A program made the translations under genes and the position numbers. The notes beneath the pieces were generated by a model. That model saw only the letters and a list, made by a program, of their open reading frames with translations, did no database searches and was not told where the DNA came from. DNA of 64,000 bases, from positions 128,001 to 192,000 of the forward strand of contig CAVPHD010000012.1 of the NCBI GenBank assembly GCA_963704165.1, in the 5' to 3' direction. Below, piece by piece: positions 48,099 to 64,000 of the stretch. Source of the stretch: an uncultured delta proteobacterium. GTDB taxonomy: Bacteria; Myxococcota_A; UBA9160; SZUA-336. The first letter of the stretch is position 1. Every line of letters starts with the position of its first letter.

Positions 48099-49391
48099 AT
48101 GGCGGAGTATCGCTTCATCGACAGGGTCGCAGAGGTCGAGGAGCTAGCCTCGAAGCTCGCACTGGAGAAGGTCGTCGCCGTCGATACCGAGGCGGACTCC
48201 TTCTTCCACTACTTCGACAAGCTCTGCCTGCTGCAGATCTCCGCGTCGTGCGGGACGTTCCTGATCGACCCGCTGTCGATGCCGCCGCGCGGGCTCGAGC
48301 CACTGGCGCCGGTGATGCTGAACCCGGCCATCCGCAAGGTGTTTCACGCCGCCGACTACGACCTGTTCGTCCTGAGCCGGCACTGCGGAATCACCGTGCG
48401 CGGATTGTTCGACACGATGATCTCGGCGCAGATGCTCGGCTATCCCGCCGTCGGTCTCGGCGCCCTGGTCGAACGCCACTTCGGCGTGAAGCTCTCGAAG
48501 GACCAGCAGCGCACGGACTGGTCGCTGCGGGCACTCAAGCCCGCCCAGCTCAATTACGCGGCCTCCGACGTGATCTATCTGATCGAGCTCGCCCAGACGC
48601 TCGAGCGCGAGCTCACCGAGAAGAAGCGTCTCGCGTGGGCGAAGGCGGAGTTCGCGGCGCTCGAGCAGCGCCTGTGGCCCGAGCGCGAGTTCGACATGCA
48701 GGGCTACCTGCGCATCAAAGGCGCGCGCAAACTCACCCCGCGCGGGATCGCGGTCCTGCGCGAGCTGTACCTGTGGCGCGACAAGCGGGCGCGCGAGCTC
48801 GACAAGCCGCCGTTCAAGGTGATGGGAAACGGGACGCTTCTCGATCTGGCTCAGAGTCCGCCGGGCTCGCGCAGGGCGCTCGGCATGCGCAAGGGAATCT
48901 CGGAGCAGGTGCTTCGACGCCAGGGTCAGGAGCTGCTCGAAGCGATCGAGCGCGGAACGGACGGACCGGAGCACCCGCCGCTCGAGCGCAAGCAGCCGAC
49001 CGGAGAGGGCCGGCGCCGGCTCGACCGTCGCGGCGAGTCGCGCCTCGACGAGCTCAAGCTCTGGCGCGCGAAGCGCGCGGGAGAGCTGGGCCTCGATCCC
49101 GGTGTGTTCTGCCCGAACGCCTCGCTCGAGGAGATCGCCGCCGTAGCGCCCAAACGCCCCGAAGAGCTCAGTGGGCTCACGGCCGTCAAGCCCTGGTGGA
49201 TCGAGCAGTTCGGCCCGGAGGTCCTGAAGATCCTCTCCGACTCCGACGCGCCGGCGGCCACCGCCGAGGTCCCGAAGCAGACCCGCGCTCAGGCCGCGCC
49301 CGATCCCGAGTCCGGGAGCCCGGAGCAAGTCCCTCGCAAGCGCTCACGGCGAAGTCGGCGGGGATCTCGCGGGGGGCGGCGGCGGCGCTGA
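48099..49391 (+). CDS. rnd: Ribonuclease D with HRDC domains and Arg-rich tail
   Basis: AVDTEADS, KVFHAADYD, LFDT, DWSLR and YAASDV exonuclease motifs; WRDKRARELDKPPF HRDC. Confidence 0.9.
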   Translation: MAEYRFIDRVAEVEELASKLALEKVVAVDTEADSFFHYFDKLCLLQISASCGTFLIDPLSMPPRGLEPLAPVMLNPAIRKVFHAADYDLFVLSRHCGITVRGLFDTMISAQMLGYPAVGLGALVERHFGVKLSKDQQRTDWSLRALKPAQLNYAASDVIYLIELAQTLERELTEKKRLAWAKAEFAALEQRLWPEREFDMQGYLRIKGARKLTPRGIAVLRELYLWRDKRARELDKPPFKVMGNGTLLDLAQSPPGSRRALGMRKGISEQVLRRQGQELLEAIERGTDGPEHPPLERKQPTGEGRRRLDRRGESRLDELKLWRAKRAGELGLDPGVFCPNASLEEIAAVAPKRPEELSGLTAVKPWWIEQFGPEVLKILSDSDAPAATAEVPKQTRAQAAPDPESGSPEQVPRKRSRRSRRGSRGGRRRR

Positions 49392-49504: not shown

Positions 49505-49954
49505 GTGGCCGCTCAACACTCCGACACCCCCGCGTGGCTCTTCTCGTTCGTCGATCTGGCCTTCCTGATTCTGCTCGCCATGACGCAGGTCGGGTCGCTC
49601 GACGCCGAGAAGGGGCTCGATCTCGGCGAGCTGATCGTCCCGAGGGTCGGAGAAAAGGCGCCTGCCGACGCGCTGACCGCGGGCGGCGACGCGACACAGG
49701 TACGCGTATACCCGCCGGGTGATGCGCAGCCCGTCTTCGAGCTCGTCCGGGCCGGAGTGCCGAGCGAACGCATCGGCCGCGAAGCGCTTCGCGAGCGCCT
49801 GGTCCGACTGCGTGCGGATTCCACGGAGCGGCCGATCCTCGCGCCGCACGCGGACTCGCGCAGCGAGGATCTGCTCGCCGCCGTGAGCCTGATCGAAGAC
49901 GCCTGGCCGAGCGAGCGCCGCGCGATGGTTCAGCGAGTCGAGCTGTCGCATTGA
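49505..49954 (+). CDS. ExbD/TolR-like single-pass protein
   Basis: N-terminal TM WLFSFVDLAFLILL with conserved Asp; C-terminal ILAPHADSRSEDLLAAV resembles the ExbD periplasmic domain. Confidence 0.7.
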   Translation: MAAQHSDTPAWLFSFVDLAFLILLAMTQVGSLDAEKGLDLGELIVPRVGEKAPADALTAGGDATQVRVYPPGDAQPVFELVRAGVPSERIGREALRERLVRLRADSTERPILAPHADSRSEDLLAAVSLIEDAWPSERRAMVQRVELSH

Positions 49955-51121
49955 GAGCGGACCCGCTCGCCCGCCGATTCGGTCACGGTGCGTCACATTT
50001 CCGTGTCGCCGCGGAGCCGCTCGCGCCGGTGCCGCCGCTCGCGCCACTGGGCGGAGCGGGGAGCGCCGCAGCGACGGTGGTCGCGAGCGGTCTCATCATC
50101 TTCGCCGGTCTGCGTGCGCTCGATTCGAGCGAAACCGAGCCCGGAGCGCTCCGGATCGTGCCGCTGCATGCGCAGGTCGTCGCGCCGGAGCCGGAACCCG
50201 AGCCGGAGCCCGAGCCGGAGCTCATCGCCGAGCCCGAGCCGCCGCCACCGCCTGCGCCTCGCGAGCCCGCGCCCGCGCCCGAGCCGATTCGCGCCCCCGT
50301 CGCGAAGCTCGAGCGGATCGAGCCACGACCCGCGCCCGCGCCGGTCGCGCGCCGCGTCGCGCCTCCGGTCCGGATCGACCCACCGCGCGCGCCAGCCGAG
50401 TCCGTCGAGACCGCGACGCGGACCGCGTGGCGTCCGCCCTCGGTCGAGCCGAGCGCAAGTCCGCGCGCGAATACACCGCCGCGTGTCGCGATCGACGGCA
50501 TCTCCGGCCCGGCAGAGCCGGTCGCGGAGAACCCGTCGCATGTCCGCAGTCTGCCGCCGGGCGTGCCCGCTCCGCGCCGCGTCGTCGCGCCGACGCTTCC
50601 GAGCGTGATGCCGCCTGCGGCCGCCGCGCCGACACTTCCCGGTGACGGGCCGATCGCGCGCCTGGCCTCGCGCGCGGCTCCGATCGAGGCGCCCGCCGAA
50701 CGCGGCGCCACGCGCGGTGCCCGGCCGCAGCATGTTTCGTTCGCGGGCGCAGCGAGTCCGTCCGCGGCGACGGCCGCGCACGCTCCGGCTTCGGCCGCGC
50801 GCGCGCGCGTCGAGGCCGCACCCATGCCCGCTTCGGCCCGGCGCTCGGAGCCGGAGTCGAAACTGCGTGGCGTGCCGCTCTCCGCGCTCGAGGCCTGCCG
50901 AACCGACCAGCGCGAGGACTCGCTCAAGCTCGCGGTGATCGCCGCCGTCGGAAACAGACATCGAGTGCTCGAACGCCGCGGGGAGCTACCGGTTCGTCGA
51001 GACCAAGAACCTGAACGCGTTTCTGATGTGGATCGAGCGCGCGCCGGGCCGCGCAGCGGTGGACCGCTGCGGCGAGCTCGCGCACGCGCTCGGTTGTCTG
51101 TCACGACCGGGAGCGATGTGA
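49951..51121 (+). CDS. TonB/TolA-like Pro-rich protein with Cys-containing C-terminal domain; frameshift ~50960
   Basis: TM (VVASGLIIFAGL), (EP)n repeat, long Pro/Ala linker; after the shift ECSNAAGSYRFVETKNLNAFLMWIERAPGRAAVDRCGELAHALGCL...; TGA overlaps the next ATG. Confidence 0.6.
50185..50220 (+). repeat. Coding 6-bp-period repeat encoding (PE)n
   Basis: ccggag ccggaa cccgag ccggag cccgag ccggag. Confidence 0.7.
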
Positions 51122-53166
51122 TGAGAATTGGAGCGAGCCTCGGACTGATGGTCCTGACCTGCGCGATCGCGAACCCGGTCCTGGCCGGAACCGAATCGAC
51201 GGTGTGGTCGGGCTACCTCGACTACGCGTACGTCTACTCGTCCGCCGATGCCCGCGCGCTGCGCGAGCGCTTGCAGGGCTACGGAAACGAGGCGGGTATC
51301 TCGCTCGATCGCTACGTCACCGACTACTTCGAGACGCTGGCGCCGCACGAATCCGGCGACGAAGAGGCGCTGCAGCGCAGAAAGGCCATCGCCTATCTTC
51401 TGCTCCACCTCTCGAAGGGCGCGCCCGACGCGCTCGAAGCGAGCGTCAAGTCGATTCGCCAGCTCTCCAATCGACTCGACCGGCACGAGAACGCCTACTG
51501 GTACCACTACATCCTCGCGACGCGCGCGCTCGAGCGCGGCAACGCCGGAGACTTCGTCCAGGAGATCCTCGACGTCTGGCTGACCGTCGTGCTGCCGCTC
51601 GAGGCGACCTACCAGACACTCGACAATCTCTCGCTCTCCGACGCGCCGAACTCCGGCTTTCTCGCAGCGCTTCCCTACGTGTACGAGAACACCGCGCGCA
51701 TGATCGTGCTGCGAAGCCAGGAGAAGGGCGTCGATCGCGACCTCGACCCGCTCGGAACGATCGTGCGGCTGCTCTACGACGGCCGCGTCGGCGCGTATCC
51801 CGACGTGATTCCGCCGGCCGCGTCCTCGCGCGCCTACCTCGAGCGGATCATCGGCCGCATGGACGGACCGGAGTCCGACGTCGGCAGCCTCACCTTCACG
51901 CTCGCGCTGCTCGAGGCCAGCAAGCACCACGAGAACGCGCGCGGTCTTCTGGCGAAGGAGGGCCTCGGTCCCGCGACGCAGCGCGCGCTGCGCACGACCA
52001 CCGGCGCCTATGAGATCGCCTTCAAGCGGGCGCGCACCGTCGAGGGACAGTGCGCGGTGTACTCGCGCGTGCTCCGCGAGATCGGCGAGGTCTACGTCGC
52101 GAAGCAGCGGCTCGACACCGAGGTCGAGCTCGACATGCCGTTCAGCATCGAGGGCGCAATCGGGGTCTGGGCGACGCTGCGCGGATCGATGAACGACGAC
52201 TGGGAGAAACTCGGCTACCAGAACGTGTCGCGCGAGCAGTATCTCGACTCGATGCGCCGTCTCTGGGAGGAGATCCAGGAGACGAGTCTCAACGTCGCCG
52301 ACTACTACCTGTGGCGCGCCGTGAAGGAGCCACAACGCGCCGACGAGTACGCGCGCGCGGCCGCCCGCGTCTACGGCCGCTACCTGGGATTCTTCCACCA
52401 GTACGCGACGGAGGACGGCAAACCCGCGCTTCCGGATTCAGCCTACTTCGCGGCGTTCGAAGCGTCGAAGGGCGTCGGCAACGCGCTTCTCGCCTATGCG
52501 ACGCGGCCGACGTCGGCCGAGGTGGTGCTCGGAACGGAGCGCTATCGCAGCGCGCTCCTGCTCTTCCCGTTCGATCGCGAGCTCTGGCCCGCGATCACTT
52601 CGGGACTCGGCCGTCACGGACGCCAGAGCGAGTACGCCCGGATCGTGCGCCCGATCGCCGAGCACGTCGCGCGCTCGCGCGCGCTCGCGAGCTGGATCGA
52701 CGGCGGCGAGCCCGAGTGGAAGCGCCTTTCGGTCCTCCGAACCGCGCTCGCGGACAGCGAGGTGCTGCTCTACATGGGCTTCGCCGAGAGCTCGAGGATT
52801 CCCGCGCTCGACGCGGAGCTCGAAGACCTGCGAGGCAAGCGCGACACGCTCCTGCGCCAGATCGCGGAGCTCGGCGCGCGGCGCGATGCGGTTCGTGCGC
52901 TCCCGCTGGAACAGTTCCCCGCTTCGCCCGACGCGGGCGCGGACGATCTGGCCGACGTGGCGCAGAAGCTCGCGGACGCGGAAGCACTCCTCGTTCGCAC
53001 GGAGCAGCAGATCGCTTCGCGTTCGCGTGCGCTGCCGCTCTTCAAGGCGACGCTCGAGACCGACGGACTCGCGCAGGAGATGCGCGCCCGGCGCGACCAC
53101 CCGGTGCACGTGCTGCTTCGGCGCATGTACCACGAGGGCCGGCCACTGGAGAAGACGAATGACTGA
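51121..53166 (+). CDS. Large secreted alpha-helical hypothetical protein (~681 aa)
   Basis: Signal peptide MRIGASLGLMVLTCAIANPVLA; Tyr-rich helical body; C-terminal coiled coil; no family recognised. Confidence 0.75.
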   Translation: MRIGASLGLMVLTCAIANPVLAGTESTVWSGYLDYAYVYSSADARALRERLQGYGNEAGISLDRYVTDYFETLAPHESGDEEALQRRKAIAYLLLHLSKGAPDALEASVKSIRQLSNRLDRHENAYWYHYILATRALERGNAGDFVQEILDVWLTVVLPLEATYQTLDNLSLSDAPNSGFLAALPYVYENTARMIVLRSQEKGVDRDLDPLGTIVRLLYDGRVGAYPDVIPPAASSRAYLERIIGRMDGPESDVGSLTFTLALLEASKHHENARGLLAKEGLGPATQRALRTTTGAYEIAFKRARTVEGQCAVYSRVLREIGEVYVAKQRLDTEVELDMPFSIEGAIGVWATLRGSMNDDWEKLGYQNVSREQYLDSMRRLWEEIQETSLNVADYYLWRAVKEPQRADEYARAAARVYGRYLGFFHQYATEDGKPALPDSAYFAAFEASKGVGNALLAYATRPTSAEVVLGTERYRSALLLFPFDRELWPAITSGLGRHGRQSEYARIVRPIAEHVARSRALASWIDGGEPEWKRLSVLRTALADSEVLLYMGFAESSRIPALDAELEDLRGKRDTLLRQIAELGARRDAVRALPLEQFPASPDAGADDLADVAQKLADAEALLVRTEQQIASRSRALPLFKATLETDGLAQEMRARRDHPVHVLLRRMYHEGRPLEKTND

Positions 53167-53689
53167 ACGGACGCTTCGCACCTGGGTCGCCGCCATCGCG
53201 TGCAGCGCGCTCGCGGCCTGCGCGTCGTCGGGGAATCGACCCGCGGATTTCGGCAGCACCGAAAAGGCGGCGGAGGAAACCGCGCCGCTCGGCGGCGCGT
53301 CGCTCGATGTCCGCCGCGAGACCATGGGGCGCATGTACGAGGACCTGATGCACTTCCGCACGTCTCTCGATCACGCCGAGCAACGCGGAGACCGCACGAC
53401 CCAGGTCGCGCTCAACCACTTCGTCGACGCGTACATCGGGATGCACCTCGACCCGATGCTCGCCGGCGAATGGCAGAGCCGTCACCCGGAGCTCTGGGGC
53501 GTCGATGCCGATCTGCGCCTGGCCAAGGCGCAGGTCCTGAAGCGGATGCGCGAGCGAACCCGCGCGGACGACGTGCTCGAGGAGATCGGCACGCGCTACG
53601 CCGGCCGCGAAGACATGCTCGTGCACTATCCGCCCGGAAGTCAGAGCCCGCTCGGCAAGGCCGTGCAACTGATTCGCGACGGAAACTGA
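53159..53689 (+). CDS. Hypothetical lipoprotein
   Basis: MTERTLRTWVAAIACSALAAC lipobox; overlaps the upstream stop. Confidence 0.72.
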   Translation: MTERTLRTWVAAIACSALAACASSGNRPADFGSTEKAAEETAPLGGASLDVRRETMGRMYEDLMHFRTSLDHAEQRGDRTTQVALNHFVDAYIGMHLDPMLAGEWQSRHPELWGVDADLRLAKAQVLKRMRERTRADDVLEEIGTRYAGREDMLVHYPPGSQSPLGKAVQLIRDGN

Positions 53690-53702
53690 GGAAGGATCCC
53701 CG

Positions 53703-54332
53703 ATGGACGGCTCCATGCTCTCGACCCAGGCCACGATCGTCATCGTCATGAGCGGCCTCTCGCTCGTCGCGATCTGCGTTCCTCTCTATCGAGGTCTCGC
53801 GCTGGCCATGCGCGCGTCGAAGGCGACGCGGTTCGTGCCTCGTCCCGCGCTCGAGAAGAGCCTGCAATTCTCGACGAAGGGCCCCGCCGACTCCATCGCC
53901 GTGCTCATGCTTCGCGTGCTCGCCAAGTCGCTGCGCTCGCCCGACGCCCGTGCGGTGGCGAGCGACTTCGTCGTCGATGCGAGCCGGCAGTTCGTGATGA
54001 ACGAGTACGAGTCCAGCTACGCGCGGCCGATCTCGATGTACTCGAACCTGCTCCCGCCGATCGGTCTGGCCGGAAACGCGATCGGAATGCTGATCCTGCT
54101 GGTCTCGAAGCACATGGCCGGCACGCCGCTCGAGCTCGGCGCGCTCGGACTCGCGCTGTCGTCGACGATCTTCGCGCTGCTCGGCTACGCGCTGCTCGAG
54201 GCGATCAAGCTGCGGCTCTACGGCCGGATGCTGCGCTGCCTCGAAGAGGTCGTCTCGCTGCACCGCATGGCCGAGGAGCGCGCGGAGCGCCCGGCCGCGT
54301 CGGGTGCGGCGCCTCTGCCGTCGCCCGCCTGA
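53703..54332 (+). CDS. MotA/TolQ/ExbB proton-channel family protein (divergent)
   Basis: Three TMs; LLPPIGLAGNAIGM and ALGLALSSTIFAL resemble the PxxGLxGTxxGM and ALxTT motifs. Confidence 0.75.
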   Translation: MDGSMLSTQATIVIVMSGLSLVAICVPLYRGLALAMRASKATRFVPRPALEKSLQFSTKGPADSIAVLMLRVLAKSLRSPDARAVASDFVVDASRQFVMNEYESSYARPISMYSNLLPPIGLAGNAIGMLILLVSKHMAGTPLELGALGLALSSTIFALLGYALLEAIKLRLYGRMLRCLEEVVSLHRMAEERAERPAASGAAPLPSPA

Positions 54333-54338
54333 TCCGGG

Positions 54339-56474
54339 TCAGATTCGCGGCGGCGTGGCGACTTCGAGCCTCGTCGAGAAGCCGCGTTCCCGAAGCAGGA
54401 CGGTGACCGGACCGAGCTCCGAGATCTGCTCGAAGCCGATCAAGTAGACGTCGTAGCGATCGCGCTCGTCGCCGCGCCACGGCACGAGCGCGGGTGTTCC
54501 CGCGAGGCCGCGGATCTCCTCGACGACGAGATCGGCCTCCGCCCGCGTCGCGCGCGTCGCCACGAGCACCGCGTACGGCGCGCTCGTGAGCGAGCCCAGC
54601 GGACCGACGCGAAGCAGCTGGCGCTCGAAGGCGAGGCGGCGCGTCGTCGATTCAGCCCGCTGCTCCTCCGGTGAGTCGATCCGGGTCGCCTGCACCGCGG
54701 TGACGAGGCGCCGCGTTCGTGCGACGTCGCGCGTCGAACGGAAGAACCAGCCCAGGATGGGGATGTCCATCAGATAGGGCACGCCGGTCACCGTGCTCGC
54801 GGTCGTGTCGGCGGGCGCCGCGGCCACGAGCATCACCGCACCATCGGTCAGCCGCACGTTCGCATCCACGTCGAACTTGCGCAGCGTCGGCCCGCGCTCC
54901 TCGCTCGAGGTCTCCGATTCGCTCACGACCGTCAACGCATCGGCCACGGAGCTCACCGTGACGTGGAGCTCCAACACGATGATGTCTTCGGTGACGACGG
55001 TCGGCGTGATCTTCAGATCGACGCCGACGTCCTGACGCTGGATCGCGACCGAAGTCACGAACGGATCGGTCGAGCTCGTTCCACTCGCGTCGGTGCCGAA
55101 GTCCGTCGTGGCCGCGGCGCCGGACGAGACGGGGATCGGCACCTGATCGCCGCTGAAGATGCGCTGCTCCTCGCCGGCCGCGGCGAGCAGGTACGGACTG
55201 GTCAGCGCGCGGATCGAGACGTCGCCCTGCGCCGCTGTGATCTGCGCGCCGCCGGTCGGCACGACGGCGACGGTGGGTAGACCGTCGGGCCCGATGATCG
55301 GAATCACCAGCGGCGTGCGCGTGAATCGCGCCAGGAAGGGCTGCGCCTCGGGGGGAGCGAGCAGGCTCGCGGCGTCGCCGATCGCGGTGAACGCGATCGT
55401 GTCGTTCGGATCCTCGATGTGGACGAGCGGGAGCAGCGCGTCGAAGCCGAGCTCGACGCCCTTCGCCGTCTCGACGTCCCAGACGTGCACCTCGATCCCG
55501 ACCCGCGCTGGGATCCGGTCGAGCTCGCCGATCACCCGGCTGACCTGCGCGAAGACCGCGGGCGTCGCGCGGATCACGAGCGAGTTCGTCGCGTCGTCGG
55601 TGACGATTTCGAGCGCCGAATCCGGTAGACCGGAGGCGTCGGCGGACTCGAGCTCGAGTCCGCGCAGATGATCCGCGAGCACTTCGGCCTCGGCGTTCAC
55701 GACGCGGACGACGTGCACGCCGCTCGCCGAGCGTGTCGGAAGATCGAGCGTCTCGATCAGGGCGCCGACCTCGGCGACGCGCGCGGGGGGACCCTGGACG
55801 AGAAGCGAGTTCGTGCGCGAATCGACGACGACACGCCAGGGTCGTTCGGGCGCGTTCCCGGAACCGAACGCCTCGTCGAGCTGGCCGGCGAGCGTCTCGG
55901 CATCGGCGTAGCGCAGCGGGAAGACCCGCAGCTCCGTCTTCGAGGCCTTGTCGAGCGATCGCACCACCACGAGCATCGCGGCGAGACGATCTTCGGGAGC
56001 GGCGATGATCAGACCGTTCGTCGCCGGATACGGCAGCACGATCGCGGCGCGCGTGTCGCGACCGAGGATGTCGGCGATCTCGTCGGGATCGGCCGAGTCG
56101 AGCCGGACGAGGGTCGTCACGAGTCGCGCCGACTCGCTCGACGCCTCGTCATACAGCCACGGTGCGGCGCCGCGACTGGCCTCGATCGGCAGGATCTTCC
56201 AGATGCCGTCGGGACCGGGAGTCGTCGCGTACCCGGTCATCAGGAGCGCCGCGTTCAGGACCTCGAGCGCTTCGTCCGCGGTGATCTCGTCTTCGAGGAT
56301 GATCGTCGCGCGACCGCGGAGATCCCGGTCGTATACGAAGCGCTGACCGGTCGCGCGCGCGACCGCTTCGACGATCGCCGTGATCTCCGCGTTGCGGAAG
56401 TTCAGCACGAGCCCCTGGCCCCGCGCGGAGGCGGCGAGCAGGATCACGATCGCGAAGCCGGCGAGCGCGCGCAT
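54339..56474 (-). CDS. gspD: Type II secretion secretin GspD-like with C-terminal SPOR-like extension
   Basis: LNFRNAEI N0 domain, three N-domain repeats (PLRYADAE, DSRTNSLLV), RQDVGVDLKITP and GVPYLMDIPILGWFFRS motifs. Confidence 0.85.
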   Translation of the reverse strand: MRALAGFAIVILLAASARGQGLVLNFRNAEITAIVEAVARATGQRFVYDRDLRGRATIILEDEITADEALEVLNAALLMTGYATTPGPDGIWKILPIEASRGAAPWLYDEASSESARLVTTLVRLDSADPDEIADILGRDTRAAIVLPYPATNGLIIAAPEDRLAAMLVVVRSLDKASKTELRVFPLRYADAETLAGQLDEAFGSGNAPERPWRVVVDSRTNSLLVQGPPARVAEVGALIETLDLPTRSASGVHVVRVVNAEAEVLADHLRGLELESADASGLPDSALEIVTDDATNSLVIRATPAVFAQVSRVIGELDRIPARVGIEVHVWDVETAKGVELGFDALLPLVHIEDPNDTIAFTAIGDAASLLAPPEAQPFLARFTRTPLVIPIIGPDGLPTVAVVPTGGAQITAAQGDVSIRALTSPYLLAAAGEEQRIFSGDQVPIPVSSGAAATTDFGTDASGTSSTDPFVTSVAIQRQDVGVDLKITPTVVTEDIIVLELHVTVSSVADALTVVSESETSSEERGPTLRKFDVDANVRLTDGAVMLVAAAPADTTASTVTGVPYLMDIPILGWFFRSTRDVARTRRLVTAVQATRIDSPEEQRAESTTRRLAFERQLLRVGPLGSLTSAPYAVLVATRATRAEADLVVEEIRGLAGTPALVPWRGDERDRYDVYLIGFEQISELGPVTVLLRERGFSTRLEVATPPRI

Positions 56475-56519: not shown

Positions 56520-58025
56520 TCAGACGATCGGTGCGAACGCGATCAGGGCATCGAAGGACGCGCCCGAGCCGAGGCCGTGCGTCGGCAGGACCGACCCGAA
56601 GCTCCCGACGCGGTCGTGCAGCGCCAGGTAGTTCAGAACCACCGCCTCGGCGAGCAGCGCGACGTTGTTCGCGACCGCGGTCGATGCGGTCTCGACCGAC
56701 CCGGAGGGCCGGAAGTAACCGATCTGCTGTGCCGTCGCGCGCGTCATCGCGGGCCGGCCCGTGGGGCTGTAGACCAGAACCAGGTTCGCGGCGGTGTCCG
56801 AGCTGTCGCCCTTCCAGATCCCCTTGCCGCGCCCGTCGGCGGAGTTGTCGAGCACGCCGTCGCTCGAGAGCGAGCCGTCCGAGAGCACGTAGAGCATGAG
56901 CGGCGCCGCGCGCCGCGCGGCGAACTCGAGCGCCGCTCCCATCATCTGACCGGCCAGGAAGTCGCGGACCTCGCCGGTCGCGCGCGTGCTGTCGTGGTAG
57001 TCGTAGCCACCCTGCTCGATCGTGCCCGCGCCCGCGAAGCCTTCGACGACGAGCTTCATCACCGCCGCGGTCTTCGCGAAGCGGCCCTGATTGAGCTCGG
57101 CCGCGGTGAAGATCGGATTGGCGCCGGTGGCGATGTCGGGATCGACCAGCGGGTTCACCAGATCGGGATTTCCGTAGCGCGCGATCAGGTCGGTCGTCTG
57201 GGTGTAGTTGCACAGGATCTGAGACTCGAGCGCCGGGTCCTCGTTCTCGTGCGCGAGCTTGATCGCGCTGATCTCCTCGGCCGCGCGCGCGACCTGCCCG
57301 GCCTGCGTCTGGTTCAAGAGCGACACGAGATTTCCGGTGTCGATCAGTCCGGTCGCGTCGCGCGCGGAATCGACCTTGGTCGGACGCTTGGTCGGATCGA
57401 TCATCGACATCGGCGCTTCCGAGTTTCCGCCCGAGACCGAGCTCACCGAACCGACGAGCGTGACGAGCTCGCCGTCCGCGCCGGCGCGGTTGATGCCGTA
57501 CATGGGATTGTGCGGGTTGTTGTCGGTGTCGTTGTCGGAGCGCGCGCAGAAGATCGTTCCGTTGACGTTCGCACGCGTTGCAGCCGAGGTCTTCGACAGG
57601 ATGCCGCGCAGGAACGCGCTGTCGGAGTGGAACGCGATGCCGAGCTCGGTGTTCACCTGACCCGCGTTGCCCGGCGTCATGTCCGAGGGCAGGCCGAGCT
57701 TCGAGTAGCCTTCGCCGGTGAGGAGATCGAGCTGACCGCCGGGTCCACCGACGAGAACGTTCGAACCGGCGATGCTCGCGCCTCCGGCGAGATCGATGCA
57801 CAGGAACGGAATCAGCCCCGCGCCCGCGCGCAGCACGCAGCCCGCGCCCTGAGCGCGCGCGGTCGAGGCGCGAAGCAGCGAGAGCAGCGTCGGCGCCATG
57901 ACCAGGCCCGCGCCCGAGAGCAGCCCGCGCGCGAGGAAGTCGCGGCGCGTGACCGGACGCCGGTGGTCCTCGAGCCGGAGCGGCGCGTCCGCAGGGTGGG
58001 TGTGTCTTCGCTTCATCTCGCTCAC
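56520..58025 (-). CDS. Tat-exported protein (DUF1501/DUF1552-like partner of cytochrome module)
   Basis: TRRDFLARGLL twin-arginine signal; GGYDYHD and LSDGS motifs. Confidence 0.65.
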   Translation of the reverse strand: MSEMKRRHTHPADAPLRLEDHRRPVTRRDFLARGLLSGAGLVMAPTLLSLLRASTARAQGAGCVLRAGAGLIPFLCIDLAGGASIAGSNVLVGGPGGQLDLLTGEGYSKLGLPSDMTPGNAGQVNTELGIAFHSDSAFLRGILSKTSAATRANVNGTIFCARSDNDTDNNPHNPMYGINRAGADGELVTLVGSVSSVSGGNSEAPMSMIDPTKRPTKVDSARDATGLIDTGNLVSLLNQTQAGQVARAAEEISAIKLAHENEDPALESQILCNYTQTTDLIARYGNPDLVNPLVDPDIATGANPIFTAAELNQGRFAKTAAVMKLVVEGFAGAGTIEQGGYDYHDSTRATGEVRDFLAGQMMGAALEFAARRAAPLMLYVLSDGSLSSDGVLDNSADGRGKGIWKGDSSDTAANLVLVYSPTGRPAMTRATAQQIGYFRPSGSVETASTAVANNVALLAEAVVLNYLALHDRVGSFGSVLPTHGLGSGASFDALIAFAPIV

Positions 58026-58035
58026 CTCTTCCGTG

Positions 58036-60201
58036 CTAGTGCAGCTGCACCGCGGCGCTCGATAGCACCGCTGCGCAGACGCCCTTCACGACGTTTCGCG
58101 TGTGGCTCGCCGGGCACGACGCCGCGCTGCACCCCGCCGTCAGCTGGTCGATCAACGTGTCGAGGTGCGAGCGCACCTCGGACGCGGCCGGCTGGTTCGC
58201 GAGCGACGTCCCGAGCATTTGCGTCGAGATGGGAGCGATCACGGAATCCCGTTGCGCCGTCGTCGAGAACGCGGTCGTGGCGGGCAGGGTCCAGTCGAAG
58301 CCCGCGCCGAAGAACGCGGTCCGCAGGGTCGTGTTCTCGATCATCTGATCGCAGTAGTCGAGCGCGAGCCGCGAGATGCCGACCTGGTGCGCAGAGACGA
58401 AGGCCTCGACGTCGCTGTCGCCCGGCAGCGCCTGCTGCAGCTCGATCCAGGTCGCGCGCACGATCGCATTGGTCGCGGGAACACCCGTGATCTCGGACAT
58501 CGAGTCGTTGATCTGCGAGAAGTCGCGGATGCCGATGCCGGCCGACGGCAGGACCACGCCCGGCGTGGGCGGCGGAGATCCCGGCAGATCGACCATCGGG
58601 CTCGAGAAGTCGCCGATCGCGTCGAAGAAGACGTGGAAGACGTCGAGATCGACGCCGAGATCCTTCGGCACGACCTGACACTGCTCGGAAAGCCGCGTGC
58701 TCGTCTGCGTGATCGCGGTGTCGAGCAGGCGGAAGCTCTGGCTCGCGACCGGCGCCACGCCGTTCACCGAGATGCGGATCGTCTGCACGCTGAAGCCCGT
58801 CCGCCCGCCGGAGTTCAACACCGGTGCGCAGAACAGGTAGCTGTAGGCGTCGAACTCGCTGACCGTGAACTCGACCCAGGCGTCCGGCGCGAGCGCATCG
58901 TCGAGCCCGAAGCGCAGCGTGTAGCGCTGGTTCGCACCGGCGAGGAAGTTCTGCGTGATCTGCTCCTGCGTGAGGATGTCCTCGTAGATGGCGACGAGCT
59001 TCACGATTCCGTGCCACGCGCGGTTGTTGCTCGTCTCGTTTCCGACCGCGAACGTGTACCCCGGGTCCCAGCTCACGAGCAGGGCGGGTGCGACCTCGTC
59101 CACGTCGTCGGTGAAGACGCCATCGACGAAGATGCGCCGACCGCGCGTCTGGTCGTAGGTGAGCACCACGTGCTGCAGCATCGCCTGCAGGTCCTCGTCG
59201 GCGTCGGCCGTGACGAGCGCGGGTTCGCCGTTCGTGCTGACCAAGGGGTTCACGCTGCGATTGCGGTAGACGTAGTTGTACATGACCTGGCCGAGCATGA
59301 AGTTGCGCGCGCCGGTTCCGCTCGAGTACGAGAGGATGCGCGCGGGACCTTCCTGCGTCGTGTTCGCCGGGATCAGCCAGCTCTCGATCGAGTACTGCTG
59401 CATTCCGCTGCCGCTCGCGAGCTCGTTGTAGAGCTTGCGGCTGTCGGTCGCGTTCGAGCTCGCCTTGCCGCCGGTGAACTCGAGACCGCCGCCGGAAACC
59501 CAGCCGACGTCGCCCGAGAGCGCCAGGTTCATCGTCGGGCCGACGCGGCTCGTGTCGAGCGCGACCGATCCCGAGCCTTCCGCGAACTTCCAGAGCGCGA
59601 TCGGGTTGCCCTCGTAGCGCCCGCTCTCGGCGCGGACCGCGGAGAGGAACGTCCGCCCGTCGCTCGCGATGATCGTCGGCGGGATCTCCGTTCCCGGATC
59701 GTTCGGATCGGGATTCGCGACGACGACCGCGTCGGCCCAGAGCTGGATCGCGGCCTGCATCGCGTCGGCGTCGGAGTCGCAGTTGTTCCAGCAGAAGTGG
59801 CGATCCGTGCGCAGGCGCTCGACCAGACGCGAGCGCGAGGGATCGAGCAGGTTCACCTTCTGGTTGTCGATCACCGCGCGAAACGCCGTCTCGCCGTCGG
59901 GATGCGAGATGTGCGGGAAGCCCGGACCCGAACCGACGTGACACTGCACGCAGTACTGCCGCGTCAGCGGATGGACGTTGGCTTCGAAGGCCGCCTGCCC
60001 GATCGCGCCGCCGCCCGCGGGCACGCCGACACCCACACCGCCGCCACCGGCGCCGGTATTCGACGGCACGTTCGTCGGCGCGGAGCCGATGTCGCGGCCG
60101 CCTTCGCCCTCGCCGCCGCCACCCCCGCCGCCACCACAGCCCGAGGCCGCGACGAGGACCGAGAGCGACAGCGCAATCGTGTAAGTCCGGCTCGTGCTCA
60201 T
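58036..60201 (-). CDS. Lipoprotein with monoheme c-type cytochrome and LamG/ConA-like domain
   Basis: AASGC lipobox, Gly-rich linker, YCVQCH, ALWKFAEGSG, SIESWLIP, QHVVLTYD...IFVDG and WHGIVKLVAIY. Confidence 0.78.
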   Translation of the reverse strand: MSTSRTYTIALSLSVLVAASGCGGGGGGGGEGEGGRDIGSAPTNVPSNTGAGGGGVGVGVPAGGGAIGQAAFEANVHPLTRQYCVQCHVGSGPGFPHISHPDGETAFRAVIDNQKVNLLDPSRSRLVERLRTDRHFCWNNCDSDADAMQAAIQLWADAVVVANPDPNDPGTEIPPTIIASDGRTFLSAVRAESGRYEGNPIALWKFAEGSGSVALDTSRVGPTMNLALSGDVGWVSGGGLEFTGGKASSNATDSRKLYNELASGSGMQQYSIESWLIPANTTQEGPARILSYSSGTGARNFMLGQVMYNYVYRNRSVNPLVSTNGEPALVTADADEDLQAMLQHVVLTYDQTRGRRIFVDGVFTDDVDEVAPALLVSWDPGYTFAVGNETSNNRAWHGIVKLVAIYEDILTQEQITQNFLAGANQRYTLRFGLDDALAPDAWVEFTVSEFDAYSYLFCAPVLNSGGRTGFSVQTIRISVNGVAPVASQSFRLLDTAITQTSTRLSEQCQVVPKDLGVDLDVFHVFFDAIGDFSSPMVDLPGSPPPTPGVVLPSAGIGIRDFSQINDSMSEITGVPATNAIVRATWIELQQALPGDSDVEAFVSAHQVGISRLALDYCDQMIENTTLRTAFFGAGFDWTLPATTAFSTTAQRDSVIAPISTQMLGTSLANQPAASEVRSHLDTLIDQLTAGCSAASCPASHTRNVVKGVCAAVLSSAAVQLH

Positions 60202-60204
60202 CGC

Positions 60205-61389
60205 CTAGTTCCCCATGCAGTGCGCGGCGGTTTCCGCGAAGACGCGCTTCATGCTGTGGTTCTCGGTCTCGAAGACGTCCGCGATCGTCTGCACCGCGAG
60301 CCGGTCCTCGGCGGATTCCGGCACACGCAGGCAGACGCGCCGGAAGACCTTCTCGACCTGGCACTCCGAGAACGCGCGGGTCGAGGCCACTTCCACGCCG
60401 AGGCTCTTGGGTCCGTTGCCCGAAGCGGACGGACCCTCCCAACCCAGCGACGAGTTCGGCCCGACACGCCAGGGGTTCAGCCAGCGGTCGTCGACGGTGA
60501 CGTAGCCGCCGGGGAACGTGTTCGCGTTGATCAGATGCTTGGGCGCAACGCTTCCGCGCGTGAAGACGACGCGCCCGAGCGCCTCGTCCCACTCGAAGAA
60601 GGCGAACGCGCCGGCGAGCGGGTCCATGCCCGCGTGACAGCCGACGCAGGTGTTGTGGAAGATCCGGCTGTCGCCGCCCGGACTGCGGCTGATGTCCTGT
60701 CGGATTCGATCCGCCGGGCGCGTGATGTCGTTCAGCTGTTCGAGGTCGCGGCACAGGAAGTTCATCGCGGTGAAGCGCAACATCCGGCGGTTCGTGCCCG
60801 CGGAGAAGAACGCTTCTCCGGCGGCGCGCGTCGTCAGCACACCCGCCGTGTCTCCCGTCGCGATCGAAGCGCCGGGCAACGTGGACTGCGGCCGCTGCAC
60901 GAGCACCGCCGGATTCGAGAGATCCGCGCGCGCCTGCTCGAGCTGTTGGTAGTGCAGATTGTCGGTCTGGGAGTAAGCCGCTCCGACCACCCCCGGCGCG
61001 CCGACATAGACCATGTCGGCCCAGAGAACCTGGTCGAACGGCACGTCGTCCCGGATCATGCCGATCACCGTCGCCGAGTAATCGTTCAAATCGGCGAAGA
61101 CGGTCTGTGAGACGTTGGTCCAGGGCGTGACGAAGTTCTTCAGCGCCGAGACGTAGAAGATCGGGTTGTCCATCGCGGTGTAGGCCGCGGTGAGCGGATC
61201 GCCGCCGTCGATCGACACCTGCATCGACGTCAGCACGGCCTCGGACGGCGGCACGCCGACGAGGCGATCGTGCATGCGTTTCGCCTGCTCGCGCGAGCCC
61301 GCGTTCGCGTCCCCGGGCCAGGCTCCCAGCAGCACGAGCCACAGAGCCGCCAGGAGTGGCGTTCCGATCGGAGTCCGAAGCCAGCTCAT
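60205..61389 (-). CDS. Secreted c-type cytochrome-like protein (DUF1585/DUF1588-like)
   Basis: Signal peptide; AGVLTT and CVGCHAGMDPLA motifs; C-terminal MKRVFAE. Confidence 0.7.
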   Translation of the reverse strand: MSWLRTPIGTPLLAALWLVLLGAWPGDANAGSREQAKRMHDRLVGVPPSEAVLTSMQVSIDGGDPLTAAYTAMDNPIFYVSALKNFVTPWTNVSQTVFADLNDYSATVIGMIRDDVPFDQVLWADMVYVGAPGVVGAAYSQTDNLHYQQLEQARADLSNPAVLVQRPQSTLPGASIATGDTAGVLTTRAAGEAFFSAGTNRRMLRFTAMNFLCRDLEQLNDITRPADRIRQDISRSPGGDSRIFHNTCVGCHAGMDPLAGAFAFFEWDEALGRVVFTRGSVAPKHLINANTFPGGYVTVDDRWLNPWRVGPNSSLGWEGPSASGNGPKSLGVEVASTRAFSECQVEKVFRRVCLRVPESAEDRLAVQTIADVFETENHSMKRVFAETAAHCMGN

Positions 61390-61621: not shown

Positions 61622-62131
61622 ATGGTGACGTTCGGATTCGTCGTCGCTGCGATCGGAGCTGCTTGCGTGTCGCTCGCTTCGGGACCGGCGCGCGCCGCGG
61701 ACGAGGGCGAGCTCGCGCCCGTGTTCTCGGCGAAGTCCCTCGACGGCGAAAGCACGATCTCGCTCGGCGCCTACCGGGGCAAGGTCGTGTATCTCGACTT
61801 CTGGGCGTCGTGGTGCGCTCCGTGTCGGACGGCGCTGCCCGCGATCGAGAAGCTGCGCACGGAGTTCCCGGCGCAGGACTTCCAGGTCATCGCGGTGAAC
61901 GTCGACACCGACGTCGAGAAAGCGCTGCGGCTGATGGCGGAGCACAAGATCGGCTACCCGAGCGCGGCGGATCCCGACGGCGTGCTGCCCGAGACCTTCG
62001 GCCTCAAGACCATGCCGACCTCCTACCTGATCGACCGCGCGGGCGTGGTGCGGCTGGTGCACCCGGGCTTCCGATCGAGCGACGTCGAGAAACTGCGCGC
62101 CCAGATCAAGACGCTCGTGGAGGCGAAGTGA
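61622..62131 (+). CDS. TlpA/ResA-like thiol-disulfide oxidoreductase
   Basis: YRGKVVYLDFWASWCAPC and MPTSYLIDR motifs; start may be GTG 61613. Confidence 0.92.
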   Translation: MVTFGFVVAAIGAACVSLASGPARAADEGELAPVFSAKSLDGESTISLGAYRGKVVYLDFWASWCAPCRTALPAIEKLRTEFPAQDFQVIAVNVDTDVEKALRLMAEHKIGYPSAADPDGVLPETFGLKTMPTSYLIDRAGVVRLVHPGFRSSDVEKLRAQIKTLVEAK

Positions 62132-62436
62132 TGAAACGGATCGCGGTCTGTCTGGCGGCGCTCGCGATGTCGGGCTGCGGGACCTTCCTGTGGCCGAGCG
62201 ACGATCTGCCGGACTTCGAGGCGTACAGCGAGCATCCGCGGAGCTATCTCGAGATCTGTCTCGAACACGACTTCCTGGTGCGCGTGAAGCCGTGGGAGCG
62301 CGCCGTGCTCTCGCGCGACGACATGGCCTGGGTGCCGGATCCGCTCGAGGGATCGCGAAGGCGGCACACGTTCTTCAGCAAAGAGGCGTCGTTGCCCGGC
62401 GGTGGCGCGGCCGGTGGAGGCTGCGGGTGCAACTGA
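62131..62436 (+). CDS. DUF4266 lipoprotein
   Basis: MSGC lipobox, VKPWERAVL, FSKEAS and terminal GGGCGCN. Confidence 0.85.
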   Translation: MKRIAVCLAALAMSGCGTFLWPSDDLPDFEAYSEHPRSYLEICLEHDFLVRVKPWERAVLSRDDMAWVPDPLEGSRRRHTFFSKEASLPGGGAAGGGCGCN

Positions 62437-63665
62437 AACGGGCGACGAAGACGGGAAGGGAGTCCGCGACCTTGCGCGCGCTCCAGGCGAGCGCGCTCGC
62501 GCTCTCGGGCATGGCGCGCGTCGCCGCGGGTGACGCGCCGATCGACCAGGTCTACAGCTCGTACAGCTTCTCGAGCTACGACGAGGACGAGCTCGAGGCG
62601 TCGAAGGGCTTGCCGCTCGCGGATGGCGAGCGCTACTCCGTCTCGACCCATCAGGCGATGCTCGCCGCGCCACTCACCGAACGCATCGACTTCTCGCTCG
62701 AAGTCACGCACGAGACGATGAGCGGCGCGAGCCCCTGGTACACGGTTCCCGACGCGGGTGGAGCGCCGATCCAGGTCATGAGCGGCGCGACGATCGAGGA
62801 TTCGCGCGACGACTTCCTCCTGCAGGCGAACTACTTCTACGAGAACGCGCGGATCGGGCTCTCGAGCGGCTACTCGGGCGAGAACGACTACACCGCGATC
62901 AACTTCGGTTTCAACGGCGAGACGCACTTCAACGAGAAGAACACCACGCTCTCCGGCGGATTCGGCGTGTCTCTCGACGAGATCGATCCGACCGACGCCG
63001 ACCTGTACGCGACGCGGCCGAGTCACGAGTCGAAGCAGACCTATTCGCTGAACGTCGGGCTCTCGCAGATCCTGAACCGCCGCTCGATCGTCCAGTCGAA
63101 TGTCTCCTACGCGTTCGGCACCGGCTACCTCTCGGATCCGTACAAGCAGGTCTTCGCCGTCGGCGGCGTGTTCTTCTCGGACGAGCGCCCCGACGCGCGC
63201 CACGGGCTCTCGTGGCTGACGCGGTATCGCCGGCACATCGAGGAATTCGAGGCGACGGTGCACCTTGGGTACCAGTACTACTTCGACACCTGGGGAGTCA
63301 GCTCGCACACGATCGAGGCCAGCTGGTACCAGTCGTTCGGCGACAACCTGCAGATCACGCCGACCGTCCGCTACTACACGCAAGAAGAAGCGGACATGTA
63401 CGTGAACTACCTTCCGCTCGGCGCGACGGGCGGCGGCGAGTACTCGAGCGACTACCGGCTCTCGAGCTACGGCGCGCTCGGTCTCGGCCTCTCGGGCGAG
63501 TACACGCTGCGCACGCGCTGGGTCGCCGACATCGAGTGGAAGCTCAAGCTCTCGTACGAGCGCTATCTCTCGAGCGCCGACCTCGCCTTCAACGGCCCGT
63601 CGGTGGAAGCTCCCGGGCTCGTGAGCTTCGACGTTTTCTCGATCGGGATCCGCGCGGCGTTCTGA
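62427..63665 (+). CDS. DUF3570 outer-membrane beta-barrel-like protein
   Basis: GTGCAACTGA overlap with DUF4266; SGAS/SGAT motifs, GYLSDPYK, RPDAR, YYFDTWGV and SSDYRLS; terminal Phe. Confidence 0.82.
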   Translation: MQLKRATKTGRESATLRALQASALALSGMARVAAGDAPIDQVYSSYSFSSYDEDELEASKGLPLADGERYSVSTHQAMLAAPLTERIDFSLEVTHETMSGASPWYTVPDAGGAPIQVMSGATIEDSRDDFLLQANYFYENARIGLSSGYSGENDYTAINFGFNGETHFNEKNTTLSGGFGVSLDEIDPTDADLYATRPSHESKQTYSLNVGLSQILNRRSIVQSNVSYAFGTGYLSDPYKQVFAVGGVFFSDERPDARHGLSWLTRYRRHIEEFEATVHLGYQYYFDTWGVSSHTIEASWYQSFGDNLQITPTVRYYTQEEADMYVNYLPLGATGGGEYSSDYRLSSYGALGLGLSGEYTLRTRWVADIEWKLKLSYERYLSSADLAFNGPSVEAPGLVSFDVFSIGIRAAF

Positions 63666-63670
63666 CCGAC

Positions 63671-64000
63671 ATGCTGCGCGCGCGTCACCCGTTCCGTGCG
63701 ATGGGCTCGCCGTGCGAGCTGCACCAGTACGGCGCTTCCCAGCGCACGTGCGATGCGCTCGCCGAGCGCGCGATCGGCGAGGTGCGCCGCCTCGAAGCGA
63801 AGTACTCGCGCTACCGCGACGACAGTGTGACCTCCGCGATCAATCGCGCCGCCGGTAATCCCGCCGGAGTCGACGTCGACGACGAGACCGCGGCGCTTCT
63901 CGACTACGCCGCAACCGCGTTCCGCTCGAGCGACGGGCTCTTCGATCCCACGTCGGGCGTGCTCCGCCGCGTCTGGAACTTCAAATCCGCCCGCGTGCCC
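63671..64000 (+). CDS. apbE: FAD:protein FMN transferase ApbE (5' part, truncated by window)
   Basis: FRAMGSPCE, RLEAKYSRYRDDS...INRAAG and SDGLFDPTSG..VWNF motifs. Confidence 0.9.
   Translation, partial: MLRARHPFRAMGSPCELHQYGASQRTCDALAERAIGEVRRLEAKYSRYRDDSVTSAINRAAGNPAGVDVDDETAALLDYAATAFRSSDGLFDPTSGVLRRVWNFKSARVP

Follow-up and report, generated by a model that had tools for sequence, protein, structure and literature searches.

Which machine do five adjoining genes in an uncultured myxobacterial relative encode, and what would its motor drive? The window, a 64,000-nucleotide stretch of DNA, holds an operon that the initial annotation had described as a candidate ion-driven envelope motor: an ExbD-like subunit (g1), a TonB-like rod protein (g2), two novel proteins (g3 and g4), and an ExbB-like subunit (g5). 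The sequence bears out five co-oriented genes that overlap or nearly abut (Table 1). A TTG/TGA overlap at 49951 joins g1 and g2, TGATG at 51119-51123 forms the g2/g3 junction, g3 and g4 overlap at 53159-53166, and a gap of 13 nt separates g4 from g5. A promoter and terminator scan gave chance-level hits only. In 39 of 44 loci, which span several families, all five genes are present and identically ordered; the linked set is real and conserved across many uncultured myxobacterial relatives. Within the class, homologs of g3 are present in 85-86 of 201 genomes and were not found in 115. The five-gene system did not turn up in listings of the open literature, a search that stops short of subscription papers and of the supplements of PMC12204202, PMC12505986, and PMC8238504, where such operons might appear.

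Table 1. Features of the operon and of the linked module in the window
Feature	Position	Strand	Description
g1	49505..49954	+	ExbD/TolR-like motor subunit, 149 aa, one N-terminal TM, invariant Asp17
g2	49951..51121	+	TonB/TolA-like transducer, broken by one extra base at 50953-50962
g3	51121..53166	+	681-aa helical solenoid (TPR-like), no family
g4	53159..53689	+	176-aa predicted lipoprotein, likely helical, no family
g5	53703..54332	+	Divergent MotA/TolQ/ExbB-family subunit, 209 aa
Secretin	54339..56474	-	Orphan GspD-type, C-terminal SPOR-like tail (AMIN added in some relatives)
501-aa protein	56520..58025	-	Twin-arginine-like N-terminus, no family; linked in 20/45 loci
LamG protein	58036..60201	-	LamG domain (PF13385, E=5.6e-13), likely lipoprotein; linked in 22/45 loci
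F6 marker	60205..61389	-	Exported protein, invariant CxxCH haem-c motif; co-distributed with g3
TlpA-like thioredoxin, DUF4266, DUF3570	61622..63665	+	

The motor subunits were recognised by profile searches, which uphold the homology first proposed from the letters alone. PF01618 matches g5 in 33 of 41 members at E<=1 (best 4.9e-7), with two family copies exceeding the curated cut-off; the best NCBIfam match among members is exbB2 (9e-5), and the g5 profile finds TolQ structures at E=0.0056. g1 is a weak ExbD/TolR homolog: Pfam ExbD matches 10 of 41 members at E<=1 (best 0.0014), and no solved structure matched its profile significantly. Neither g1 nor g5 of the window itself matched a Pfam or NCBIfam model. 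The WLFSFVD segment of g1 is in place, and the g5 motif reads PPIGLAGN. Asp17 of g1 is kept in all 41 members and aligns to D25 of E. coli ExbD in a weak, non-significant pairwise profile match (E=0.21). T/N125 and S/T155 of g5 align to T145 and T178 of TolQ; the first site is T in 33 and N in 8 of the 41 members, the second S in 23 and T in 18. The reading of GN for the usual GT is thus correct for the window but is no family trait, as all eight GN members are the window and its same-genus relatives; on this alignment GN is a mere genus-level variant of GT. In a quick tree, which does not settle the sister group, g5 branches apart from TolQ/ExbB, AglR, and MotA as a separate clade on a long branch. 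Among the best 120 g5 homologs, most are unnamed or 'hypothetical' and three carry PF01618; they may represent a motor lineage missed by annotation. Profile and tree comparisons set the five genes apart from Tol, Agl-Glt, Mot, and Zorya components. At the sequence level, none of the three findings on which the initial annotation was to be given up, loss of synteny among them, was encountered.

Intact g2 consists of a cytoplasmic [YF]GxG motif, a TM segment lacking the SHLS His, a D-box-like strand, a Pro-rich rod (median about 266 aa), and a 95-aa C-terminal domain with four Cys. A His occurs only at the edge, in 2 of 36 TM windows. The D-box-like motif, a pattern chosen after seeing the g2 sequences and similar but not identical to the D-box described in excerpts of PMC10907165, is found no more than 35 aa past the TM in 29 of 36 g2 proteins; at the rate seen elsewhere in the rod, about 5.6 would be expected. 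In the proposed mechanism, a g5 pentamer would surround a g1 dimer, with protons passing Asp17 and the Thr/Ser ring; the TM of g2 would dock on this motor, and the g1 dimer would grip the D-box-like strand. We regard this part as very probable. Homology, residues, and motif are seen in the sequences; the binding is predicted, and the 5:2 stoichiometry we infer from the family.

In the window itself, g2 does not end in the four-Cys domain as had been described, the domain being out of frame. Bases 50953-50962 comprise 10 nt in place of the 9 in four close relatives. Because of this one extra base, the frame from 49951 continues into g3 as a 1071-aa ORF, leaving three of the four Cys in the +1 frame. 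In related loci with the domain, the segment across the break is one open frame with four Cys (43/43), and the longest among the best 120 g3 homologs listed has at most 706 aa (proteins to 1192 aa were searched). A programmed frameshift or a real g2-g3 fusion was ruled out, the break being unique to the window's assembly. The extra base is either an assembly error or a real lesion; no reads are listed for the assembly. Decay of the operon in this genome, leaving no working motor, is doubtful. The break is the sole frameshift among syntenic genes in about 35 kb compared with same-genus loci and falls in g2, and Asn occupies the equivalent of TolQ T145; against this, GN is common to all eight genus members sampled, of which the other seven have intact g2, and the other four window genes are intact and 72-86% identical to their closest relatives. 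Decay here would in any case say nothing about the family.

Neither a family nor a specific fold could be assigned to the four-Cys domain, g3, or g4. The domain, folded from a relative (L002, pLDDT 76), is predicted as helix-3 strands-helix and is probably disulfide-bonded. It has no Foldseek match at E<=0.001, none of 48161 chains reaches Z>=5, and the best VIA match is an unrelated protein (Z 3.8, rmsd 3.2, 55 aligned). No TonB_C or TolA-III chain is among the 50 structure matches listed; by sequence, intact g2 of relatives has no Pfam or NCBIfam match, whereas a control GltG tail does match tonB_Cterm. At its N-terminus g3 has a hydrophobic, signal-like segment, and at its C-terminus a coiled-coil hairpin. 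Its AF2 model (pLDDT 87.8) finds only generic helical matches (best Z 12.0), and there is no Pfam or NCBIfam match. In g4, Cys21 is conserved in at least 90% of 44 sequences, and a lipobox-like motif is present in 43 of 44. Atlas neighbours of g4 are unnamed or TPR-like clusters (0.90-0.92).

Two genomes show g2 with another membrane anchor. In G070 (96% complete) and G110 (89%), g1 and g5 are both missing genome-wide with these profiles, while the four-Cys domain, g3, and g4 are retained. The g2 of G070 starts with a GltG-core membrane segment (E=1.2e-24, against 0.012-5.5 for four ordinary g2 controls), and that genome also has a Glt core. In G110, the TM reads AALLHAAVI, resembling by eye SAVLHVIL of TolA and including the SHLS-type His; in this assembly the swapped anchor and the four-Cys domain lie in different frames. 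Loss of the motor with retention of these parts behind other anchors points to g2 as the putative transducer and to the four-Cys domain, g3, and g4 as the predicted output. The swaps suggest that transducer anchors are motor-specific and outputs portable. In the next step of the mechanism, the Pro-rich rod would span the periplasm and the four-Cys domain would engage g3 and g4 at the outer membrane, which we consider likely from their co-retention.

The initial annotation had noted no outer-membrane partner nearby. This holds for TonB-dependent receptors (three PF00593 matches lie on contigs C3, C4, and C5) and for Tol-Pal, a canonical tolQRAB-cpoB-like locus sitting on C7; however, the operon directly adjoins a secretin gene, and DUF3570 is found at a distance of about 8 kb. 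Both belong to a conserved secretin/LamG/DUF3570 module whose linkage it did not mention. In 19 of 45 loci, no more than about 9 kb separate the secretin from g3; module secretins carry SPOR or AMIN domains, and the main T2SS has its own gspD on C9. Residues C248, C251, and H252 of F6 are invariant (23/23). The F6 and DUF3570 profiles found no significant solved structure, and F6 has no plasmid match. apbE begins at 63671 and runs past the window end; dsbD-like and gspC-like genes follow about 10 kb beyond it. The module contains the DsbD/ApbE/DUF3570/DUF4266/thioredoxin flavinylation cluster, described with its function stated as uncertain in excerpts of Meheust 2021 (PMC8238504); ExbB, MotA, and LamG do not occur in the main text of that paper. 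Among the 201 class genomes, 85 have g3, 84 F6, and 75 both, a count that includes kin and overstates the association because kin are not independent. Where both are on one contig (43 genomes), they are at most 20 kb apart in 42; in one complete genome, G128, 640 kb lie between them. Ten genomes have g3 without F6, and nine have F6 without g3, none of these nine with a Glt core; in these assemblies the module can therefore exist without either motor. The small beta-barrel neighbour was looked for in 31 genomes of the window's family and seen in none.

This conserved link favours a putative role in outer-membrane export or gating over motility. Force would be applied to outer-membrane components of the module, with the orphan secretin or the DUF3570 protein as the likeliest targets, and the LamG, haem-motif, and twin-arginine proteins would be released or positioned; for this last step, suggested by linkage, we put the chances at even. 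As a whole, we lean slightly towards a dedicated ExbB/ExbD-type ion motor that would pull a new periplasmic output via a TonB-like rod, energising outer-membrane export or gating for the module. The same motor and output could instead serve a general Tol-like envelope job (tethering, remodelling, or polar/septal positioning) with the module merely a genomic neighbour. The lipoprotein and the TPR/coiled-coil protein recall Pal and CpoB, a distant g3 homolog (P0183) carries AMIN, and operon and module are separable, second operon copies in one genus adjoining unrelated genes in the survey of 45 loci. We consider this unlikely, given the Tol locus already in the genome, the tight linkage in 42 of 43 informative genomes, and the lack of g3 in so many class genomes, which is unlike a core function.

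Compared with Ton and Tol, the system shares a MotA/TolQ/ExbB subunit with TM2 P-x-x-G-x-x-G-[TN]-x-x-G and a TM3 hydroxyl, a single-TM Asp partner, and a TM plus Pro-rich rod with a D-box-like strand. It differs in the separate g5 clade, the missing SHLS His, the gene order (D-rod-g3-g4-B), and the four-Cys domain in place of TonB_C/TolA-III, with no receptor, TolB, or Pal; neither tolB nor pal was found in the operon at surveyed loci, and g5 is outside the TolQ clade. Nutrient import by a divergent Ton system, which would energise receptors whose genes lie elsewhere, is very improbable. The genome does have its three receptors, g2 a D-box-like motif, and the g5 members their top NCBIfam match in exbB2, but the C-terminal domain has no TonB_C match and is predicted as helix-3 strands-helix, the 45 loci show no recurrent receptor family next to the operon, and another ExbB/ExbD/TonB-like locus lies on C4.

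The Agl-Glt core complex comprises gltC, D, E, aglR, Q, S, and gltG, with its function stated as unknown in excerpts of Luciano 2011 (PMC3169522). It likewise groups motor, transducer, TPR scaffold, and lipoprotein in one operon. A Glt-core-like cluster comes after the same LamG/DUF3570 module in 23 of 80 metagenome loci from other bacteria, which places two unrelated motor systems beside the module. Our operon has one ExbD-like gene where Agl-Glt has two (aglQ and aglS), and g5 is outside the AglR clade in the quick tree. g2, g3, and g4 gave no NCBIfam match at E<=0.01 to GltC, GltE, GltG, or AgmX/PglI-tail models, whereas Glt-core control genes do match GltC, GltE, GltG, and NF033768 (the GltD model is absent even in controls). 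A Glt core is present in 58 of the 201 class genomes, 45 of them also with g3; this coexistence rules out a genome-level non-orthologous replacement of Agl-Glt. It is improbable that the operon is an analogue of Agl-Glt, a separately evolved motor for gliding or surface translocation whose adhesin is the LamG lipoprotein. The parts mirror Glt as laid out in excerpts of PMC11761067 (motor, Pro-rich transducer, TPR scaffold, lipoprotein, beta-barrel), and G070 joins the output to a GltG-type anchor. Yet no FHA domain and no GltI or GltJ-like gene was found in surveyed loci, gliding is not believed to be driven by the Glt core by itself (PMC3169522, in excerpt), a separate Glt core occurs in 45 of the 85 g3-bearing genomes, and the linked genes are for redox and secretion.

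A precedent for the layout is given by the vWA-type transducers, a TonB-like rod with a non-TonB end domain beside TPR and motor genes (excerpts of Williams-Jones 2025, PMC12204202). They combine a vWA domain and an SHLS TM with two tolR-like genes, whereas the operon pairs a single exbD-like gene and a very divergent motor with a His-free TM and the four-Cys domain. The four-Cys domain may be a new type of transducer end-domain beside TonB_C/TolA-III and vWA. The MotAB/PomAB stator and ZorAB belong to the same superfamily as g1/g5, but g1 has no OmpA-like domain match, and g5 is short, has no tail, and lies outside the MotA clade. In a PADLOC scan covering g5, the ZorA model matched one of 41 members (E=0.049). 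The genome also has a separate motA.

Tentatively, the operon may represent an unrecognised branch of 5:2 ion motors with a His-free transducer and a modular output that anchor swaps could re-wire to Glt- or Ton/Tol-type motors, and may directly power a secretin-dependent step, export or gating, that serves a surface redox module linked to flavinylation. If this holds, the operon would make up a proton-powered secretin system and give a lead on what the orphan Glt core does in Proteobacteria; the system might also reach into cultured Geomonas species. The neighbourhood shared with the Glt core offers a concrete hypothesis for the function of that complex, an open question since 2011 (PMC3169522), and likewise for DUF3570 clusters. 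g3 homologs exist in cultured Geomonas species and may offer an experimental entry; those of Geobacteraceae had no match among plasmids or viral contigs. Outside the class, only weak short g3 matches occur, in Myxococcota, one in a 301-genome and four in a 401-genome search.

The five genes lie where the initial annotation placed them, with their overlaps confirmed in the window sequence: g1 (ExbD/TolR-like, 49505–49954), g2 (TonB/TolA-like transducer, from 49951), g3 (681-aa helical protein, 51121–53166), g4 (predicted lipoprotein, 53159–53689) and g5 (MotA/TolQ/ExbB-like, 53703–54332). The claimed end of g2 in a four-Cys domain (g2C) does not hold for the window, where the frame opened at 49951 has no stop at 51121 and, as sequenced, is a 1071-aa ORF reaching into g3. 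Three of the four cysteines lie in the +1 frame, and bases 50953–50962 comprise 10 nt as compared to 9 nt in four close relatives. A single frame with exactly four Cys crosses this region in all 43 related loci having the domain, and all four are invariant in them. No other frameshift turned up in the syntenic genes compared, which cover about 35 kb; an assembly error is considered likelier than a true lesion. In the window's genus alone (7/45 loci), the operon has an RNase D-like gene (3'-5' exonuclease and HRDC, 48099–49391) upstream.

The relatives are MAGs assigned to Myxococcota or deltaproteobacteria. In the class surveyed (201 genomes), which we take to be GTDB UBA9160, g3 was detected in 86 genomes, or 85 once one weak match (E = 6e-4) was removed; outside the class, the phylum gave no g3 matches other than weak, short ones. 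Forty-four loci with wide flanks, picked among the g3 matches for long contigs and diversity, were examined. The proposed operon is syntenic, with all five genes in the same order in 39 of them; two of the remaining five are truncated by contig ends and three are without some genes. A g3 profile gave 266 matches at E ≤ 0.001 against 1.84 billion representatives, including a distant full-length subfamily (~20% identity) of which Geobacteraceae, with many cultured Geomonas species, form one branch; WP_162604616.1 and WP_183351286.1 are two of the Geomonas homologues. The distant homologues P0178 and P0183 carry C-terminal extensions, with an AMIN domain in P0183. A second, more divergent five-gene copy is seen in one genus (L054, L056, L059, L061 and L069–L071); these second copies adjoin cdaA-like and glyoxalase genes and in several genomes lie ~45 kb from the Glt core. 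No description of the five-gene system was found in the literature searched.

No Pfam or NCBIfam model matched the window copies of g1 and g5. The claimed MotA/ExbB homology of g5 is borne out across the family, in which PF01618 matches 33 of 41 members at E ≤ 1 (best 4.9e-7); against structures, the g5 profile finds TolQ (E = 0.0056) and PomA (0.63). The ExbD-like assignment of g1 stands in part, the ExbD profile matching 10 of 41 members (best 0.0014) and leaving the window g1 unmatched. Asp17 of g1 is invariant. At the position of TolQ T145, 33 of the 41 g5 members have T and 8 have N, these eight all coming from the window and its genus; at that of T178, all 41 have S or T. A quick tree was built from 62 rows, comprising 14 of the 41 g5, the canonical paralogs of 11 Myxococcota genomes and three E. 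coli references. In this tree g5 forms a single clade, with a branch length of 3.1, that falls outside those of TolQ/ExbB, AglR and MotA, in keeping with the distinct motor proposed; its sister is not settled. The ZorA model matches one of 41 g5 members (E = 0.049). The window's genome (G000) also has a Tol locus of its own, a further ExbB/ExbD locus, motA and a complete T2SS, so the five-gene system is additional there. On C4, an exbB/exbD pair (L076, G000:C4:379568-385554) is accompanied by a TonB-like gene in divergent orientation and a gene for a 1094-aa protein with DTNGDG-type repeats, with no receptor noted alongside. The motA-like gene of this genome (L077, G000:C12:12496-13212) is apparently frameshifted in its N-terminal part.

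At its N-terminus, the transducer g2 carries a conserved [YF]GxG motif; its single TM lacks the SHLS His and is followed by a rod (median about 266 aa, about 24% Pro). A D-box-like strand, a pattern picked post hoc, follows the TM in 29 of the 36 g2 scored (8 sequences skipped) against ~5.6 expected; the D-box binds the ExbD dimer, according to PMC10907165. The end domain is modelled as helix-3 strands-helix (pLDDT 76), and its fold search gave no match at Z ≥ 5. The model of g3 is a helical solenoid with a coiled-coil hairpin (pLDDT 87.8), for which fold searches gave nothing beyond generic matches. A lipobox-like motif is present in 43 of 44 g4, which resemble unnamed or TPR-like clusters. 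Judged by sequence, the system belongs to the motor superfamily, and it lies outside Ton, Tol-Pal, Agl-Glt, Mot and Zorya. By analogy with Ton, Tol and Agl-Glt, it would combine an ion motor with a transducer that spans the periplasm and an output at the outer membrane. PMC12204202 offers a precedent for a transducer whose end domain is not of the TonB type; related literature includes PMC3169522, PMC11761067, PMC12505986 and bioRxiv 10.64898/2026.07.10.737566.

The operon adjoins a module of linked genes, counted within about 9 kb at 45 loci including the window (table). Across the 201 genomes, counts that include non-independent kin, g3 and F6 (a CxxCH haem-c motif protein) co-occur in 75, with g3 alone in 10, F6 alone in 9 and neither in 107. 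The two share a contig in 43 of the 75 (separate contigs in 32) and are less than 20 kb apart in 42 of these 43. Some results speak against the link, as do the second operon copies beside cdaA-like and glyoxalase genes. Both g3 and the Glt core are absent from the nine F6-only genomes, and g5 is also missing in the two checked. In G128, the operon is 640 kb from the module, and the secretin and barrel stay with the module. The small barrel was detected in 23 of 101 genomes but in none of the 31 that belong to the window's family. DsbD, ApbE, DUF3570, DUF4266 and thioredoxin have been described as a flavinylation cluster whose function is uncertain (PMC8238504). The orphan GspD secretin (window 54339–56474) has a SPOR-like tail, with SPOR and AMIN matches in relatives; an orphan GspC-like gene (G000:C12:201175-201969) adjoins dsbD, the main T2SS being separate, on C9. 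The two are possibly a dedicated GspC/GspD pair. At L078, L082, L084 and L091, from genomes that have F6 and lack g3, LamG reaches about 1700–1800 aa through a long additional N-terminal stretch, and its gene adjoins multihaem-cytochrome-like genes.

Chimeric g2 genes and neighbours of the five-gene operon
Feature	Character	Coordinates (genome)	Loci
Chimeric g2	GltG-type membrane anchor	L073:11103-12818 (G070)	
Chimeric g2	TonB/TolA-like membrane anchor	L046:10988-11999 (G110)	
LamG	operon neighbour		22/45
F6 (CxxCH protein)	operon neighbour		22/45
Twin-arginine-like protein	operon neighbour		20/45
Orphan secretin	operon neighbour		19/45
DsbD-like	operon neighbour		14/45
ApbE	operon neighbour		13/45
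TlpA	operon neighbour		12/45
DUF3570	operon neighbour		12/45
DUF4266	operon neighbour		10/45
Small beta-barrel	operon neighbour		9/45

A metagenome survey of F6 covered the best 80 of 552 loci; among these 80, the five-gene operon is present in three and another series of TPR genes in 23, with no locus having both. The 23 loci are presumably proteobacterial. Their TPR series is assigned to the start of the Agl-Glt core, the flanks ending before the agl genes. Its homologues run on into GltE-like, AglR/Q/S-like and GltG-like genes in seven class genomes, and gene order and sizes agree with the accessible supplement of PMC3169522. The operon and the Glt-core series are found beside the same module; therefore, two unrelated motor systems adjoin it, suggesting that envelope force is required by the module. 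The two motors can coexist: of the 85 genomes with g3, 45 also carry a Glt core at another site. Proteobacterial-type Glt core clusters occur in 58 of the 201 class genomes; at seven loci (L194–L200), the core is followed by very large (about 1000–2000 aa) repeat or adhesin-like genes. At metagenome loci L124–L175 (e.g. L149 and L152), the LamG/F6/twin-arginine/DUF3570 module is flanked by two TIGR04565-like beta-barrels, a propeller protein of HZS-alpha/TolB-like type and the beginning of a Glt core cluster; this link was not found in the literature searched.

Two genomes of different families, G070 (96% complete) and G110 (89%), retain g2C, g3 and g4 next to the linked module. Genome-wide searches found g1 and g5 nowhere in either; the two genes are at opposite ends of the operon, yet both are missing. 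The N-terminus of g2 differs from that of ordinary g2 in both genomes. In G070, which has a Glt core, it matches the Glt-core GltG membrane segment at E = 1.2e-24 (0.012–5.5 for four ordinary g2 N-termini), and this anchor shares one reading frame with the rod and the four-Cys domain. The G110 TM (AALLHAAVI) resembles TolA SAVLHVIL by eye; its assembly has a frameshift between the anchor TM and the end domain. The simplest reading, on the basis of two genomes, is that g1 and g5 function as a pair, that the g2 anchor is motor-specific and that g2C–g3–g4 form a portable output. One further locus (L065) contains g3 and g4 only, in a genome having other full operon copies.
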